This document shows, in pieces, positions 2,959 to 38,358 of a stretch of 38,358 nt of DNA; within the stretch, counting starts at the first letter, position 1, and each line of letters begins with the position of its first letter. Under the pieces are notes generated by a model. It worked only from the letters and a program-made list of their open reading frames with translations, made no database searches and was not told the DNA's origin. This DNA comes from a virus (taxonomy: Duplodnaviria > Heunggongvirae > Uroviricota > Caudoviricetes), in the IMG/VR virus record IMGVR_UViG_3300045988_093140, one strand, 5' to 3'. The position numbers and the translations under genes are program-made.

Positions 2959-5516
2959 CGTCCACCTCCGGAGAACAGACCACCATCGCGCATCTGCCCG
3001 GTCACAACATCCATTGCCGCCTTACGGGCTACGTCATAAACAGCCTTCAGTGCCTGTGGCCCTATCTGACCGTTCGTGCCGTCGTTGTTAATCACCACAT
3101 GGTTATTCTGCTCAAACGTCCCGGACGCCTGCGACCGGCTGTCTGCCATGCTGCCCGGTGTACCGACATAACCGCCGGTGGCATAGCCGCGCATCAGCCG
3201 GTAGAGATTCCCCACGCCAATCCGGCTGGTTGCCTCCTTCGTGAAGACAAACTCACCACGGTGAACAATCCCCGCTGGCTCATATTTGCCGCCGGTTCCC
3301 GTAAATCCCCCGGTCGCAAAATGGAATTTCGCCGCAGCGGCCTGAATGGCTGTACCACCTGACGCTGATGCTCCACCACTGGCAGCACCGCCAATGGCGC
3401 TGCCGATACTCCCGACAATCCCCACCATTGCCTGCTTAAGCAGAATTTCTGTCATCATGGACAGCACGGAACGGGTGAAGCTGCGCCAGTTCTGTTCACT
3501 GCCGGTCAGCATCGCCGCCATATTCTGTGCAATACCATCAAAGGTCTGCGTGGCAGCACTTTTAACCTGCGACATACTGTCCGTGGCGCTCTCTTCCCAC
3601 TCACTCCAGCCGGACTTCAGGCCTGCCATCCAGCTCCCGCGAAGCTGGTCTTCAGCCGCCCAGGTCTTTTTCTGCTCTGACATGACGTTATTCAGCGCCA
3701 GCGGATTATCGCCATACTGTTCCTTCAGACGCTGTTCCGTGGCTTCCCGCGCTGCCTGCCGGTCAGTCAGCCCCCGGCTTTTCGCATCAATGGCGGCCCG
3801 TTTTGCCCGTTGCTGCTGTGCGAATTTATCCGCCTGCTGCGCCAGCGCATTCAGGTGCTCCTGATACGTGACCTTATCGCCAAGTGCAGCCAGCTGGCGC
3901 TTGTACTCCAGCGTCTCGTCTTTATGCGCCAGCAGGGATTTCTCCTGTGCAGACAGCTGGCGACGTTGCGCCGCCTCCTCCAGTACCGCGAACTGATTCT
4001 CCGCCTTCCACAAATCCCGGCGCTGCTGGCTGATTTTCTCATTCGCTCCGGCATGCTTCTCCAGCGTCCGGAGTTCTGCCTGAAGCGTCAGCAGGGCAGC
4101 ATGAGCACTGTCTTCCTGACGATCGCCCGCAGACACCTTCACGCCGGACTGCTTCGGCTTTTTCAGCGTAGCTTCATAATCCTTTTTCGCTGCCGCCATC
4201 AGCGTGTTGTAATCTGCCTGCAGGATTTTCCCGTCTTTCAGTGCCTTATTCAGTTCTTCCTGACGGGCGGTATATTTCTCCAGCGGCGTTTGCAGGCGTT
4301 CGTAAGCCTTCTGCGCCTCTTCGGTATATTTCAGCCGTGACGCTTCGGTATCGCTCTGCTGCTGCGCATTTTTGTCCTGTTGACTCTGCTGCTCAGCCTT
4401 CTTTCGGGCGGCTTCAAGCGCAAGACGGGCCTTTTCACGATCATCCCAGTAACGCGCCCGCGCTTCATCGTTAACAAAATAATCATCCTTGCGCAGATTC
4501 CAGATGTCGTCTGCTTTCTTAAACGCAGCCTCTGCCTTAATCAGCATCTCCTGAGCGGTATCAGGACGACCAATATCCAGCACCGCATCCCACATGGATT
4601 TGAATGCCCGTGCTGTCCTGTCTGCCCAGGTCTCCAGCGTGCCCATGTTCTCTTTCAGGCGGCGGGTCTGGTCATCAAACCCTTTCGTTGCGGCCTCGTT
4701 CGCCGCCTGCAATGCCCCGGCTTCATCGCCGGAACGCTGCAACTGAGCAACATACGCAATCTGCTCCGCCGTCACGTTATGGAACTGGCGTGCCATCGCC
4801 GTCAGCCCCGACGTCGGGTCTGTGGTCAGCTTCCCGAAGGCTTCAGCGACCTTGTCCACCTCCACGCCGGATGCAGAGGAGAAACGCGCCACACTCTGGC
4901 TGATGGACGCAATCTGAGCCTCACCGCTTACCCCCGCCTTAACCAGTGCGCTGAGTGACTCGCTGGTCTGGTTAAACGTCAGCCCTGCCGCCTGCCCGGC
5001 TCTGGACAGGACCAGCATGCGATCTGCCGTCAGTCCCGCCTGATTGCCGGAAAGGACCAGCGTTTTGTTGAAATCGGACAGGGTTGAGTTGCCCTGATAC
5101 CAGGCATACGCCAGCGCACCGGTCGCCACCGCCAGCGAGGTGGCCCCCACCATCGGCAGGGTGATCGCACCGGCAAGCCCCCTGAACATGGGGATCATCC
5201 CGCCGAAGGAGTCCTTAACCTGACCACCCTGTTGCAGCAGGATCAGCCACGGACTTTGCCCGCCTGCAAGCTGCGTGGCCACGTCGGTGAACTGTGCAGG
5301 CAGCATACGCATGGCGGCTTTATACTGCCCGACGGAAATCCCCGCTTTCTGTGCAGCCAGCGCCTGTCGGCTCAGCGACTGTTCAACGACTGCCGCTGTT
5401 TTTTTCGCATCACTTTCCGTACCGGAAAAATGACGCCTGACTCTGGCCATCTGCTCGTCAAATCTGGCCGCATCCAGACTCAAATCAACGACCAGATCGC
5501 CTACCGGTTCAGCCAT
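2955..5516 (-). CDS. H: Tail tape-measure protein H
   Basis: 853 aa (lambda gpH length), long Ala/Gln-rich coiled-coil core, position between T and M. Confidence 0.95.
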   Translation of the reverse strand: MAEPVGDLVVDLSLDAARFDEQMARVRRHFSGTESDAKKTAAVVEQSLSRQALAAQKAGISVGQYKAAMRMLPAQFTDVATQLAGGQSPWLILLQQGGQVKDSFGGMIPMFRGLAGAITLPMVGATSLAVATGALAYAWYQGNSTLSDFNKTLVLSGNQAGLTADRMLVLSRAGQAAGLTFNQTSESLSALVKAGVSGEAQIASISQSVARFSSASGVEVDKVAEAFGKLTTDPTSGLTAMARQFHNVTAEQIAYVAQLQRSGDEAGALQAANEAATKGFDDQTRRLKENMGTLETWADRTARAFKSMWDAVLDIGRPDTAQEMLIKAEAAFKKADDIWNLRKDDYFVNDEARARYWDDREKARLALEAARKKAEQQSQQDKNAQQQSDTEASRLKYTEEAQKAYERLQTPLEKYTARQEELNKALKDGKILQADYNTLMAAAKKDYEATLKKPKQSGVKVSAGDRQEDSAHAALLTLQAELRTLEKHAGANEKISQQRRDLWKAENQFAVLEEAAQRRQLSAQEKSLLAHKDETLEYKRQLAALGDKVTYQEHLNALAQQADKFAQQQRAKRAAIDAKSRGLTDRQAAREATEQRLKEQYGDNPLALNNVMSEQKKTWAAEDQLRGSWMAGLKSGWSEWEESATDSMSQVKSAATQTFDGIAQNMAAMLTGSEQNWRSFTRSVLSMMTEILLKQAMVGIVGSIGSAIGGAASGGASASGGTAIQAAAAKFHFATGGFTGTGGKYEPAGIVHRGEFVFTKEATSRIGVGNLYRLMRGYATGGYVGTPGSMADSRSQASGTFEQNNHVVINNDGTNGQIGPQALKAVYDVARKAAMDVVTGQMRDGGLFSGGGR

Positions 5517-15318: not shown

Positions 15319-15344
<26 letters not shown>

Positions 15345-15864
15345 TCAGCAACCCCGGTATCAGTTCATCCAGCGCGGCTGCTTTGTTCATGGCTTTGATG
15401 ATATCCCGTTTCAGGAAATCAATATGCCGGTTATCCAGCTCAGGAAAACGTCGCTGCACCGACAGAGGAATACCGTCGAGAATACTGGATATTTCCCTTG
15501 CTATACGCGACAGCACGAAAGTACAGAATGCGGTTTCCACCACTTCAGCCGATTCTTTGGCATTTTTCAGTTCCTGCGCCGTCGCCTGAGCACGAGTCAG
15601 GCGATGGCGCTCAAATTCAAGTGTTCCTGGGTGAAGATCTGCCTCGCTGGCCAGCCGCAGTTCTTCAACCTCCCGGCGCAGCTTTTCGTTCTCAATTTCA
15701 GCATCCCTTTCGGCATACCATTTTATGACGGCGGCAGAGTCATAAAGCACCTCATTACCCTTGCCACCGCCTCGCAGAACGGGCATTCCCTGCTCTTGCC
15801 AGTTCTGAATGGTACGGATACTCGCACCGAAAATATCAGCCAGCTGCTTTTTGTTGACTTCCAT
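15319..15864 (-). CDS. Nu1: Terminase small subunit Nu1
   Basis: 181 aa (lambda Nu1 length), MEVNKKQLADIFGASIRTIQNWQEQGMPVLRGGGKGNEVLYDSAAVIKWY... Confidence 0.95.
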
Positions 15865-16000: not shown

Positions 16001-16080
16001 GCCTTAAACCGGAAAATTTTCATAAATAGCGAAAACCCGCGCGCCTTCCGCCCCGTAGCCTGCCGGATCGCCGGAAAGGA
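16001..16080. other. cos site region (cosN with flanking cosB/cosQ-like sequence); nick-site bases differ from lambda
   Basis: About 190 bp upstream of Nu1; 16001-16041 equals the reverse complement of the lambda left end, 16061-16085 resembles the lambda right end, but 16042-16060 reads CGCCTTCCGCCCCGTAGCC rather than the lambda cohesive-end sequence. Confidence 0.6.
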
Positions 16081-33119: not shown

Positions 33120-33476
33120 ATGAAAGTAATTAGCATAAAAATCATTTTGATTTTATCAATTATTGCTCTTGCTATTGTATTTTTCTGGCCTGAATCTAAT
33201 AAAGGCCCAGAGTGCTATAAGGTTAGTGATGAACAGGCAAGAGAATTTGTAAAAAATGACTTTTTGAAAAAAATAACGCGTTGGAATAACGATGTACAAC
33301 TTCTCGGTACAGAAGCCCCAAAAATTACGTGGGAAAAGATTGAAAGAAGCTTAACAGATGTTAAAGATGAAAAAACGCTTCTCGTCCCATTTAAAGCCGA
33401 AGGCCCGGAAGGTAAGAGAATGTATTATGGAATGTACCATTGCAAGGAAGGTTATGTTGAATATGCAAATGATTGA
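33120..33476 (+). CDS. cmi: Colicin M immunity protein
   Basis: 118 aa, N-terminal TM anchor, recognised as Cmi from the translation; convergent with cma. Confidence 0.85.
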   Translation: MKVISIKIILILSIIALAIVFFWPESNKGPECYKVSDEQAREFVKNDFLKKITRWNNDVQLLGTEAPKITWEKIERSLTDVKDEKTLLVPFKAEGPEGKRMYYGMYHCKEGYVEYAND

Positions 33477-33498
33477 TACATCGGTATAAAGACTGCAT

Positions 33499-33526
33499 AA
33501 AAAAGGCCGGAATCCCGGCCTTTTTA
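33499..33526. terminator. Bidirectional rho-independent terminator between convergent cmi and cma
   Basis: AAAAAA-GGCCGG-aatc-CCGGCC-TTTTT. Confidence 0.65.
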
Positions 33527-34342
33527 TTATCGCTTGCCACTTTCTTTAATGTGAATTTCGCCAGGAAGTAGTATCTGATACTCTTTACCAGAGAACATCG
33601 CCCCGAGCCTTGTAAGAGACTCTCCGATTACGCCACGATGAGTGCTGGCATTGAAGTCATACTTGTCGTTATACGAGCGAACAACGCCATTATAGGTCCA
33701 TGAGCCATTAGCGGAGACAGTTAAAGTACCTTCTGTTTTCAGCGTGATATTACCAAGATATGCGCCGGTAATAACATTATAATCGCCAGTGGCGTGTGTG
33801 AATTTTGTAGAAATAGGGAATGTGCCTACTACACCAGATTTTACAATATCTCTTATCTGATTAATTTTCATCGGAGAAATTTTGAGACCAATATTTGCGA
33901 TATTAACGCTTCGGTCTGCACCATTACCCCATAAATAGTGTGCAAGCGCCACAATTGGTGTTGTGACATTACCGCTCATTTGTTTCATATTCATTGAGCG
34001 ATAGTCATATTTATTTGGCGCAGGTTTAGCTAAGTGGTAGGCGTCATAAACACTTATTCCGCGGTGAAGGATAAGGTTTCTGTCAGCGTTACAGAAGTAG
34101 GCAATATTTGTTGACATAATTTGTAATGTCAGGGGATCGCTGGCACCGTGTTTTTTGATGTAGTCCTCAAGCTGAGTTAGAGCCTGAATACACATGTTTG
34201 GGCTCTGGAAAAAGCTGTAAACCACCTGGACTAAAAGGGGGCCAGAACCAGGCACGTGTGGTGCTGAGAGAGAAAATGCGCCATTACCATAACTCGGTAA
34301 GTTAGTTGATGGTGATGGAGCTGTCACAACGATAGTATCCAT
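33527..34342 (-). CDS. cma: Colicin M (lipid II-cleaving bacteriocin)
   Basis: 271 aa; recognised as colicin M along the whole length, including N-terminal TonB-box-like DTIVV and the C-terminal region with HATGDYNVITGAY. Confidence 0.85.
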   Translation of the reverse strand: MDTIVVTAPSPSTNLPSYGNGAFSLSAPHVPGSGPLLVQVVYSFFQSPNMCIQALTQLEDYIKKHGASDPLTLQIMSTNIAYFCNADRNLILHRGISVYDAYHLAKPAPNKYDYRSMNMKQMSGNVTTPIVALAHYLWGNGADRSVNIANIGLKISPMKINQIRDIVKSGVVGTFPISTKFTHATGDYNVITGAYLGNITLKTEGTLTVSANGSWTYNGVVRSYNDKYDFNASTHRGVIGESLTRLGAMFSGKEYQILLPGEIHIKESGKR

Positions 34343-36307: not shown

Positions 36308-38203
36308 TTATCCGAAATATGTCAGCCATGCTAACTGCATTGCTGACATAGGGCTGTTTGCACTGCCGGACCACGCATAATTCTGGCCATTATAATGAAA
36401 CTCAACAACGTATGAGCCATCACCAATATTTCTCACAGGCTTAAATACCGGCTTAGATACAGGTGAAGAAGGCGCTGGCGGTTGCTGTTCTTCTACGCTC
36501 TCTTCCTCTTCCTCTTCCTCTATCTCAATTTCGTCGTCATCCAGATCGTCATCCTCTGATAATTCATCCGTCTGTTCAGGTATTGCTTCCAGCTCTTCTT
36601 CGTCAGGCATAACGATTTCTGGAGTATCTATTTTCAGCTGCCATTGTCCATTTTCGCCAACAAATTGCCCCAGAGCATCAGCAGCAAATTCCAGGTATCG
36701 ACTAATCATTGTTGGGCTAAATTTGAATGCTCTTAGAGTGCTGTTCGTGATTTTTATAGAGGGGTCCTGTTCTACCAGCTGCTTAACTGTGTTATGCAGA
36801 CGAACCCCGGCATCTCCTCTGGCGAATCCAGGCATTTCGTCATCAAGCTGCTGCAATGCTTCCAGCCTGGTATTTTCGTTTCCAGTATTTGGCCTCCATG
36901 TCTTTGAGAAGTTGGCCAGCTTGAATTGTTTATAGTGTAATTGAGTGTTTTCATCGTCATGGCCTAAAATTTCCATAAAGAAAACATCTTCATCTACATT
37001 TTTCCAACGGGGATCTACGCGGAAAAACATTTCATACGCAATACGGGCATAAATAGCACGACTATCTTTATAAACACGGCGATTGTCATTGAAAAATGAT
37101 TTAACCCATGGATTAAAAGCCTTTGCTAATATGGCATTAATACGTCCGTTTTCAGACCGCGTGTCGTTATTTCCGTAACCCATAACGACTTCATCAAAAT
37201 CAGATGCTGCTGGGCATGAGCGAAGTACATTTATTAGATAAACAAACGTTTTTGCTTCGCATAATGTATATATTTTTCTGGTTACATCATCAGTAGTTCT
37301 TTTTTTCGCCTGACCTAAAAAATCAACGGTATACTTACCAGAGACAGTAAATGTACCTTGATACATAATCTCAATCATTCGTCTTCCTGATAATGCGGCA
37401 AGAGCAAATGCCAAAGGAGCCATACCTGAACGAGTGTTTAGATTATTTAATGTAGCAGGGCTATTTATAATATCGTAAATAGCTTGCATATAATTAGGGT
37501 AGTCAATGACTACTACGTTACGTTTCTTATTGTGTAGTACGTCCGCCCATCGTTGCTGGATAGATGCGCGTTCGGCAGGGCTTAGTTTGAGATGATAGAG
37601 AATCTCATGGTTAACCTTTAACTGATTCAACTCCTCAAGCAAGGCTGACCCTTGCTGTAGTAATTTATATAAATAATCGCGCTTATCTTTCCAATTATCG
37701 CCAGTTAAATCAGAAATGGCAAATTGCCATTCTTTATATTTATTTGATAACTTTATTAACTTATTATTATTTTTATTATCACCAATTCTGATATTAGATA
37801 AATCTTCGGACAGATGAATAATTAATTTTAATTTTGCCTGTAAAGATGACATTCTACGGCGAATATCGGCAGCAGGTAGAGAGAGCCATGACAATAGCTC
37901 CTCATTATATAAAGGATATTTTTCAGATAGTCGATGTATATTTTTTTCAAAACTATGATGAAGTTTATCATCAAACCGTTTTCTGGCCCTGCTCATATAG
38001 GAGTTGAATGTGTTGGCTGTAATTCTCTTTTCTAATCCTTTTCCCCTAAACTTTCGCTTATCATTAAATAATGTATTTTTAAATTTTAATGCAACGGCCT
38101 TTATTTTTTTTGTTTTCTCTCCTTGAGGACGGTCAGAGTTATCTATTGACTCAACATCGCTAACAAGTGAGTTTATTAATTCACCGATTTTTACTTTGCT
38201 CAT
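36308..38203 (-). CDS. telN: Protelomerase (telomere resolvase), N15 TelN-like
   Basis: 631 aa, recognised as TelN end to end (MSKVKIGELIN...RKFRGKGLEKRITANTFN...RVYKDSRAIYARIAYEMFF..., acidic C-terminal linker); AGGAGA RBS. Confidence 0.9.
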   Translation of the reverse strand: MSKVKIGELINSLVSDVESIDNSDRPQGEKTKKIKAVALKFKNTLFNDKRKFRGKGLEKRITANTFNSYMSRARKRFDDKLHHSFEKNIHRLSEKYPLYNEELLSWLSLPAADIRRRMSSLQAKLKLIIHLSEDLSNIRIGDNKNNNKLIKLSNKYKEWQFAISDLTGDNWKDKRDYLYKLLQQGSALLEELNQLKVNHEILYHLKLSPAERASIQQRWADVLHNKKRNVVVIDYPNYMQAIYDIINSPATLNNLNTRSGMAPLAFALAALSGRRMIEIMYQGTFTVSGKYTVDFLGQAKKRTTDDVTRKIYTLCEAKTFVYLINVLRSCPAASDFDEVVMGYGNNDTRSENGRINAILAKAFNPWVKSFFNDNRRVYKDSRAIYARIAYEMFFRVDPRWKNVDEDVFFMEILGHDDENTQLHYKQFKLANFSKTWRPNTGNENTRLEALQQLDDEMPGFARGDAGVRLHNTVKQLVEQDPSIKITNSTLRAFKFSPTMISRYLEFAADALGQFVGENGQWQLKIDTPEIVMPDEEELEAIPEQTDELSEDDDLDDDEIEIEEEEEEESVEEQQPPAPSSPVSKPVFKPVRNIGDGSYVVEFHYNGQNYAWSGSANSPMSAMQLAWLTYFG

Positions 38204-38309
38204 CTTTCTTCTCCTGATTATCTGCTCAGATTATCGTAACACAATTTAAGAATAAAATAACCAATACCTAGTTAACTTACTCACAAAGTATCAGAACACA
38301 ATATCAGAC

Positions 38310-38358
38310 CTGTCTCTTATACACATCTCCGAGCCCACGAGACTCGACGTCATCTCGT
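38310..38358. other. Untrimmed Illumina Nextera (Tn5) adapter, not biological sequence
   Basis: CTGTCTCTTATACACATCTCCGAGCCCACGAGAC followed by index-like bases. Confidence 0.85.

Follow-up and report, generated by a model that had tools for sequence, protein, structure and literature searches.

The stretch of DNA analysed here, which we call the window, is 38,358 nt long and ends beside a protelomerase gene. This gene, telN (36308-38203, - strand), encodes a protein of 631 aa and is transcribed away from the telomere, with its ATG at 38203. All four protelomerase domains of Pfam (TelK_N, TelK_muzzle, ResT-TelK_cat and TelK_stirrup) were found in the product far above cut-off. Over its full length it is 77% identical to the TelN of N15 and retains the catalytic tyrosine in the motif HYKQFK, and the structure of TelK (PDB 2v6e) matched it with E=3e-290. 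A database search for the exact TelN protein of the window found no record. A Shine-Dalgarno sequence, AGGAG, was read from the sequence at 38211-38215 (- strand), 7 nt before the telN ATG; a purine-rich block of varying sequence occupies this position in all five aligned lineages. Between this ribosome-binding site and the outermost tos repeat lies a palindrome, ATCTG-CT-CAGAT (38220-38231). Relatives of the YDC107_1 type have ATCCG-CT-CGGAT at the same place, a compensatory double change that preserves the palindrome, and N15 has no equivalent of it.

The tos region starts at 38204, immediately upstream of the protelomerase gene. What is present of it (38204-38309) is a truncated telN-proximal arm: of the 191 nt that separate the telN ATG from the predicted tip of the hairpin, it comprises the first 106. 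The outermost tos repeat, TATCGTAACACAAT (38232-38245, + strand), has its inner end 149 nt from the predicted tip, and the second, TATCAGAACACAAT (38289-38302, + strand), has its inner end 92 nt from it. After the second repeat comes the spacer TATCAGAC (38302-38309, + strand), in which the genuine sequence ends. An earlier note on this DNA, made from the letters of the sequence, had placed the end of genuine sequence 106 nt upstream of telN. Our analysis agrees with it on this point and identified the full-length protelomerase at 36308-38203.

Elsewhere the window carries the lambda-like tail genes J, I, L and H, as well as Nu1 (15319-15864) and a gene for a RepA of 1331 aa. It starts inside the tail-tip gene J (1-553, - strand; Pfam FNIII-A_GpJ), which is followed by I, L and the tape-measure gene H, whose product has 853 aa. 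The cos site is joined. Using the ends of the N15 record and the lambda-type context, the equivalent of the 12-nt cohesive end was located at 16042-16053 (- strand) as GGGCGGAAGGCG. The cohesive-end sequence of lambda is GGGCGGCGACCT. The cos of the window thus has a lambda-like context with the variant GGGCGGAAGGCG, while N15 has GGGCGGCGTCCG. Since the joined cos is internal, the contig represents the plasmid-prophage permutation of the element, with telN beside one end. The remaining ~8 kb of the element, comprising the rest of J, the tail fibres, sopBA and the telL arm, is missing. Lambdoid J genes also occur in chromosomal prophages, so the break on the left, if it is a true contig end, was probably caused by repeats.

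The right 24 kb of the window showed ~97% identity over 74-86% to YDC107_1 (Ravinvirus), PhiR46_1 and many records deposited as plasmids, the latter from E. coli, E. fergusonii and E. albertii. For the window, YDC107_1 and many phage-plasmid records gave a coverage of 80-86%, likewise at ~97%. The telN end by itself also matched a Shigella sonnei record. Judged by its gene content and these matches, the element is an N15-like linear phage-plasmid of E. coli, of the Ravinvirus type. In Escherichia and Shigella, phage-plasmids resembling N15 have been recognised as a group (bioRxiv 10.1101/2025.09.12.675607). Six near-identical draft contigs at NCBI (L015-L020) were found via the exact BRO-domain protein encoded next to telN. 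Compared with the window over 36308-38309, their identity was 98.8-99.95%, with L015 differing at a single base, and over 38204-38309 all six were identical to it. The exact 28-mer of the window end gave 0 matches in the collections genome_contigs and viral_contigs.

Between repA and telN the window carries a colicin M gene and its immunity gene (33120-34342). The colicin M gene (33527-34342, - strand) is full length and encodes 271 aa (Pfam Colicin_M, E=8e-145; PDB 2xmx, E=9e-174), and the immunity gene cmi (33120-33476, + strand) matched PDB 4aeq with E=1e-55. The pair is present in six of the six near-identical NCBI contigs. Colicin M is encoded by none of the E. coli phages in the phage collection searched, and no PLSDB record covers at least 80% of a 1.6-kb query consisting of the colicin M/cmi cassette and its flanks. 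The best PLSDB matches listed were conjugative or classical colicin plasmids, in which the cassette only was matched, at ~86% nucleotide identity. By analogy, the cassette may be an E. coli counterpart of the 'telocins' of Klebsiella (PMC12042878).

The last 49 bases of the window (38310-38358) are library sequence. All 49 of them matched, with 0 mismatches, the string composed of the Tn5 mosaic end, CCGAGCCCACGAGAC, TCGACGTC and ATCTCGT. The mosaic end CTGTCTCTTATACACATCT (38310-38328, + strand) is an exact match that occurs at one site within the window, with 0 sites expected by chance from shuffled sequences, and it is missing at this position in the identical relatives. It is followed, in the order expected of such an adapter (CCGAGCCCACGAGAC, an 8-nt catalogue i7 index, then ATCTCGTATGCC...), by the Nextera i7-side adapter CCGAGCCCACGAGAC (38329-38343, + strand), again an exact match to the expected string, by the i7 index TCGACGTC (38344-38351, + strand) and by the 7 nt ATCTCGT (38352-38358, + strand), with which the P7 flow-cell sequence begins. 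The primer table of PMC7589761 (Appendix B) lists TCGACGTC as Nextera XT index N729, and its P7 primer has the end ...ACGAGAT, of which ATCTCGT is the reverse complement. The final letters of the window read ...CACAAAGTATCAGAACACAATATCAGAC followed by CTGTCTCTTATACACATCTCCGAGCCCACGAGACTCGACGTCATCTCGT. At the position of the adapter, L015-L020 have phage sequence and no adapter. When 50,697 phage records were searched, dozens of unrelated ones, among them Pseudomonas, Paenibacillus and Acinetobacter phages and others, were hit solely through the tail (query positions 508-559). The recurrence of an identical string in unrelated phage records marks the tail as a contaminant. The reading of 38310-38358 in the earlier note as Nextera adapter plus index, a library artefact, is confirmed by the exact match of 49 of 49 bases and the naming of the index as N729. 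The tail is adapter read-through of a short-insert fragment, with the Tn5 insertion site at 38309/38310, and these 49 bases need to be trimmed before annotation or database deposit.

The same Nextera string is embedded in deposited phage genomes. Using window positions 38307-38358 as a query, copies were found in dozens of them, for example MK327946.1 (76711-76762), MH973725.1 (6658-6708) and MZ092003.1 (28017-28066), and some copies lie inside annotated CDSs, for example one labelled 'baseplate hub subunit'. The adapter strings in these public phage records are unremoved contamination.

We examined the two direct repeats that precede the adapter. They lie where the earlier note had reported them and are the only two AACACAAT sites in the window, TATCGTAACACAAT and TATCAGAACACAAT; they also form the top direct-repeat family of its last 2.3 kb (25 nt, 76% identity, 57-nt spacing). 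In N15, YDC107_1, E. albertii pEA8_3, phiKO2 and KpLi5 the shorter motif AACAYAA recurs at distances of exactly 150 and 93 nt from the tip, and a third copy is found 68-69 nt from the tip in four of these lineages and 74 nt from it in KpLi5. The AACAYAA copies of the window, ending at 38244 and 38301, are separated by 57 nt, the difference between 150 and 93. The outermost repeat TATCGTAACACAAT is invariant in all examined relatives of the Escherichia lineages, N15 included, and always lies 149 nt from the tip. The repeat distances are kept across the five lineages, while the identity of the flanks falls to about 50-76%. By their positions, the two repeats are homologues of the outer tos repeats in the telomere phages of Escherichia and Klebsiella. 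They may correspond to the repeats named R2/R3 in N15, an equation that we do not assert.

The earlier note had also likened the repeats to an arm of the N15 telomere site. The sequence that it gave for that arm, TATCAGCACACAAT, was correct (the arm is located at 2069-2082 of the N15 locus L003), and TATCAGAACACAAT matches it at 13 of 14 positions. However, the repeats of the window are outer tos repeats and not the telRL arm. The 13/14 match at 38289-38302 is, by its position, homologous to the repeat 92 nt from the tip and not to the arm. The short stretch TATCAGAC had been read as a truncated third repeat, and this reading was rejected. In the six contigs identical here, TATCAGAC is followed by TATAAAATGAAACACAAT, so that they continue it as TATAAAATGAAACACAATAGCAGAAC, and the next copy of the repeat starts 25 nt further on. 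TATCAGAC is for this reason a spacer.

The position of the telomere could be read from the relatives. All six of L015-L020 go on past the equivalent of 38309 with TATAAAATGAAACACAATAGCAGAACTAGAAATTTTGTTCCTTGACTTTGTTTCGATAATCAG, and four of the six (L015-L018) reach the telO centre, between CCCATTATACGC and GCGTATAATGGG, after exactly 85 nt. At this centre L016 folds back, while L015, L017 and L018 cross telRL into the sopA arm; L019 and L020 end 13 and 22 nt short of the tip. What the relatives contain beyond 38309 is thus not ordinary sequence lacking a palindrome, the outcome that the earlier note had named as speaking against a telomere here: their continuation is the palindrome. The record of YDC107_1 contains a perfect 368-nt inverted duplication with its axis between CCCATTATACGC and GCGTATAATGGG; the annotated cut of N15 falls in the same core, which is also present at the annotated telomere site where the PhiR46_1 record stops. 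In N15, YDC107_1, PhiR46_1 and records of E. albertii, E. fergusonii and E. coli, the telN-side arm is collinear with the window, which breaks off inside it, and the distance from the telN ATG to the tip is 190-192 nt in N15, YDC107_1, pEA8_3, phiKO2 and KpLi5. Since the 57-nt spacing of the repeats equals 150 minus 93, the tip is predicted to follow virtual position 38394, 85 nt past 38309.

Within the window itself, the telO palindrome CCATTATACGCGCGTATAATGG is absent, even with three mismatches allowed, as is the telRL arm repeat (L1/R1; 14 nt from the centre), and no fold-back or second copy of the missing 85 nt was found elsewhere in it. The absence of both is due to the truncation of the contig. 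By comparison with these relatives, the contig ends 85 nt short of the predicted centre of the telO palindrome. The suggestion in the earlier note that the contig breaks at or near a telomere therefore stands for 'near' but not for 'at'. Fold-back assemblies centred on telO, those of L016 and YDC107_1, suggest that the ends are covalently closed hairpins.

We consider it very probable that the window is a truncated contig of an N15-like tos arm with an adapter attached, and from the assembled sequences we infer a loss of coverage near the hairpin. The contig would derive from a Nextera (Tn5) short-read library of an N15-like linear phage-plasmid and would show the prophage permutation, with cos joined, and its right end would run from telN into the telN-proximal tos arm and halt at 38309. 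At the centre of telO, TelN would cut and reseal the DNA into a covalently closed hairpin. Tagmentation would yield only fragments bounded by two internal insertions, so that the termini are missed. It has been described that tagmentation recovers internal fragments only and leaves true termini unobserved (bioRxiv 10.1101/2023.06.12.544617; PMC8443750). By our own reasoning, a single cut near the hairpin would produce a snap-back molecule whose two ends bear the same adapter, and such a molecule would be expected to amplify and cluster poorly. Compared with 50% in the window, the last 106 nt have a G+C content of 31% and the missing 85 nt one of 29%, and the low G+C of the final ~190 nt (only ~30%) would add to the collapse of coverage near the tip. 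This collapse would thus be due to both the capture of internal fragments only and the AT-rich terminus, and an adapter-bearing read would have been used by the assembler to lengthen the contig. Among public sequences of the family, seven others end 0, 11, 13, 22, 31, 46 and 93 nt short of the tip.

Other explanations for the repeats and for the position of the break were weighed. The repeats could be a chance similarity in AT-rich intergenic DNA, outside any TelN site, and their total number would permit this: the two AACACAAT sites in the 38-kb window are no more than the 1.66 expected by chance. Yet both copies lie within 71 nt, in the same orientation and adjoining telN, and the pattern TATCNNAACACAAT with one mismatch allowed would be expected only 0.18 times. 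The distances from the tip are identical in five lineages despite their diverged flanks. In the full tos of L015 the motif occurs 15.4 times per kb compared with 0.31 per kb in the window, an enrichment of ~50-fold, and every copy, in both arms, points toward the tip. We give chance almost no credence as an explanation. It is just as improbable that 38309 is the hairpin tip itself, the physical end of a telomere shortened in this strain, even though the contig stops there and no palindrome lies within the window. The Tn5 mosaic end attaches only through transposition into duplex DNA. The adapter junction is for this reason a Tn5 insertion site and not a physical end, and the mosaic end implies flanking duplex, so the DNA continued past 38309. 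Moreover, six contigs identical up to 38309 continue beyond it, before this position TelN would find neither a telO core nor a telRL arm to act on, and the repeat spacing fits a tip at 38394. Given the Tn5 junction and the continuing identical contigs, 38309 was rejected as the end of the molecule.

An unlikely explanation, with more in its favour, is that the template had an intact telRL, as in virion or circularised DNA, and that the break is a generic artefact of low coverage, AT-richness or a palindrome. The near-identical contigs L015, L017 and L018 read across telO into the sopA arm, although this crossing could be either a real telRL or a join made by the assembler. A G+C content of 29-31% could by itself account for low coverage, and an internal cos fits circular DNA as well as the plasmid form. 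Against this, a random break within 100 nt of the tip has a likelihood of <1% in an element of ~46 kb, and eight independent sequences of the family, the window included, stop 0-93 nt short of the same tip. Two further sequences fold back exactly at the tip. Finally, the linear hairpin plasmid is the dominant form in the lysogen, as established in the biology of N15 (PMC2847241). We thus favour a template with a hairpin end, from which the contig lost its last bases.

On the reading of a hairpin-ended template, one may annotate the end of the window as the telN-side (telR) terminus of a linear hairpin plasmid whose last 85 nt are missing, and these 85 nt can be filled in from the near-identical contigs. 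Short-read assemblies from tagmentation would systematically lose the final tens of bases of hairpin telomeres. Long reads pass round hairpin ends into the other strand (PMC13293297), and long-read assemblies overrun the tips into inverted duplications, as in YDC107_1 and L016. Owing to this short-read loss and long-read overrun, many public records of the family of the window are truncated, duplicated or mislabelled as circular. The record of YDC107_1 (CP025712.1; L001), deposited as a 'complete genome', has an inverted duplication at 3228-3963 and beyond, centred on telO; telN is annotated twice in it, with the second copy split into 'protelomerase domain' fragments. L016 and several PLSDB/RefSeq records of 61-91 kb also have inverted duplications centred on telO. 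Such telO-centred duplications in public records are artefacts of long reads running round the hairpin. Other records of the family are labelled circular though they start or stop inside tos.

A 56-bp telRL alone is enough for processing by TelN in vivo and in vitro (PMC3540006), so the outer tos repeats are accessory. TelN bound at hairpin telomeres protects them from nucleases (PMC2847241). The outer repeats probably act as additional occupancy sites for TelN. Outside the telRL core, no invariant block in the alignment of five lineages is longer than TTGTGTTAYGAT, which is the outermost repeat. On the telN strand this block reads TGnTAYGAT, resembles an extended -10 element and lies 31 nt before the ATG; in the window the possible extended -10 element TGTTACGAT (38233-38241, - strand) overlaps the outermost repeat. 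Consensus scans of the telN-side arm of the window, YDC107_1 and N15 found no sigma-70 promoter on the telN strand, and the proposal of a promoter is for that reason drawn from conservation only. TTGTGTTAYGAT may be an extended -10 promoter, or it may be only a binding site. In the linear prophage only the 191 nt from the tip to the ATG can hold the promoter of telN, and the outermost repeat is therefore proposed as both promoter and operator. As this repeat overlaps TGnTAYGAT, TelN could hypothetically repress its own gene.

Extending this, the outer repeats (150, 93 and 68-69 nt from the tip) might phase additional TelN into a telomere nucleoprotein and so couple occupancy to repression of telN, a scheme that we offer tentatively and hold to be somewhat more doubtful than probable. 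Conserved as they are to the exact base, the outer repeats give a modest hint of a link between TelN occupancy and telN expression. A literature search combining tos with the telN promoter or autoregulation, and one for 'telomerase occupancy site', returned nothing usable; the sources searched did not cover the primary N15 papers. On the other strand, pointing toward the tip, a promoter-like sequence, TTGACT-18 nt-CATAAT (10/12 matches), is found in YDC107_1 (L001, 3552-3581), where it overlaps the telRL arm. L015 carries the same TTGACT/CATAAT site, inside the 85 nt missing from the window. Such a site could read across telRL into the sopA arm only when telRL is intact, and it might thus serve to switch between circular and linear forms.

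Comparison with known systems places the window close to N15 (NC_001901). In the tos/telRL region both have telN, an arm of 191-192 nt and the telO centre in this order, and the TelN proteins, 631 aa in each, are 77% identical. They share the outermost repeat TATCGTAACACAAT, 149 nt from the tip, and each has the second repeat 92-93 nt from it; the telO core CCATTATACGCGCGTATAATGG of N15 is identical in the contigs near-identical to the window. In contrast, the DNA of the tos arm is only ~73% identical, the telRL arm is AATCAGTACATAAT in the lineage of the window but TATCAGCACACAAT in N15, and the window lacks telO and the telRL arm through truncation of the contig. YDC107_1 (CP025712) and PhiR46_1 (PV340565) share the tos architecture, with a telN-proximal arm that is 93-94% identical, as part of a set of N15-like relatives that includes ~30 'plasmid' records of E. 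coli, E. albertii, E. fergusonii and Shigella. Unlike these, the sub-lineage of the window is known only from the draft contigs L015-L020 and has its own variant of the tos arm and the colicin M/Cmi cassette, which YDC107_1, PhiR46_1 and the PLSDB records do not have in this context.

The TelK/telRL system of the Klebsiella phage phiKO2 (PDB 2v6e) has a protelomerase of the same fold family (E=3e-290), a distance of 190 nt from ATG to tip, and AACAYAA at 150, 93 and 69 nt from the tip, but differs in its diverged arm sequence, its repeats CATAACACAA and the genus of its host. The tail of the window has the string order of untrimmed Nextera XT read-through at contig ends and differs from it only in its site before a hairpin telomere. 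All features of the window fit the N15-type tos/TelN system together with a sequencing artefact, both of them already known.
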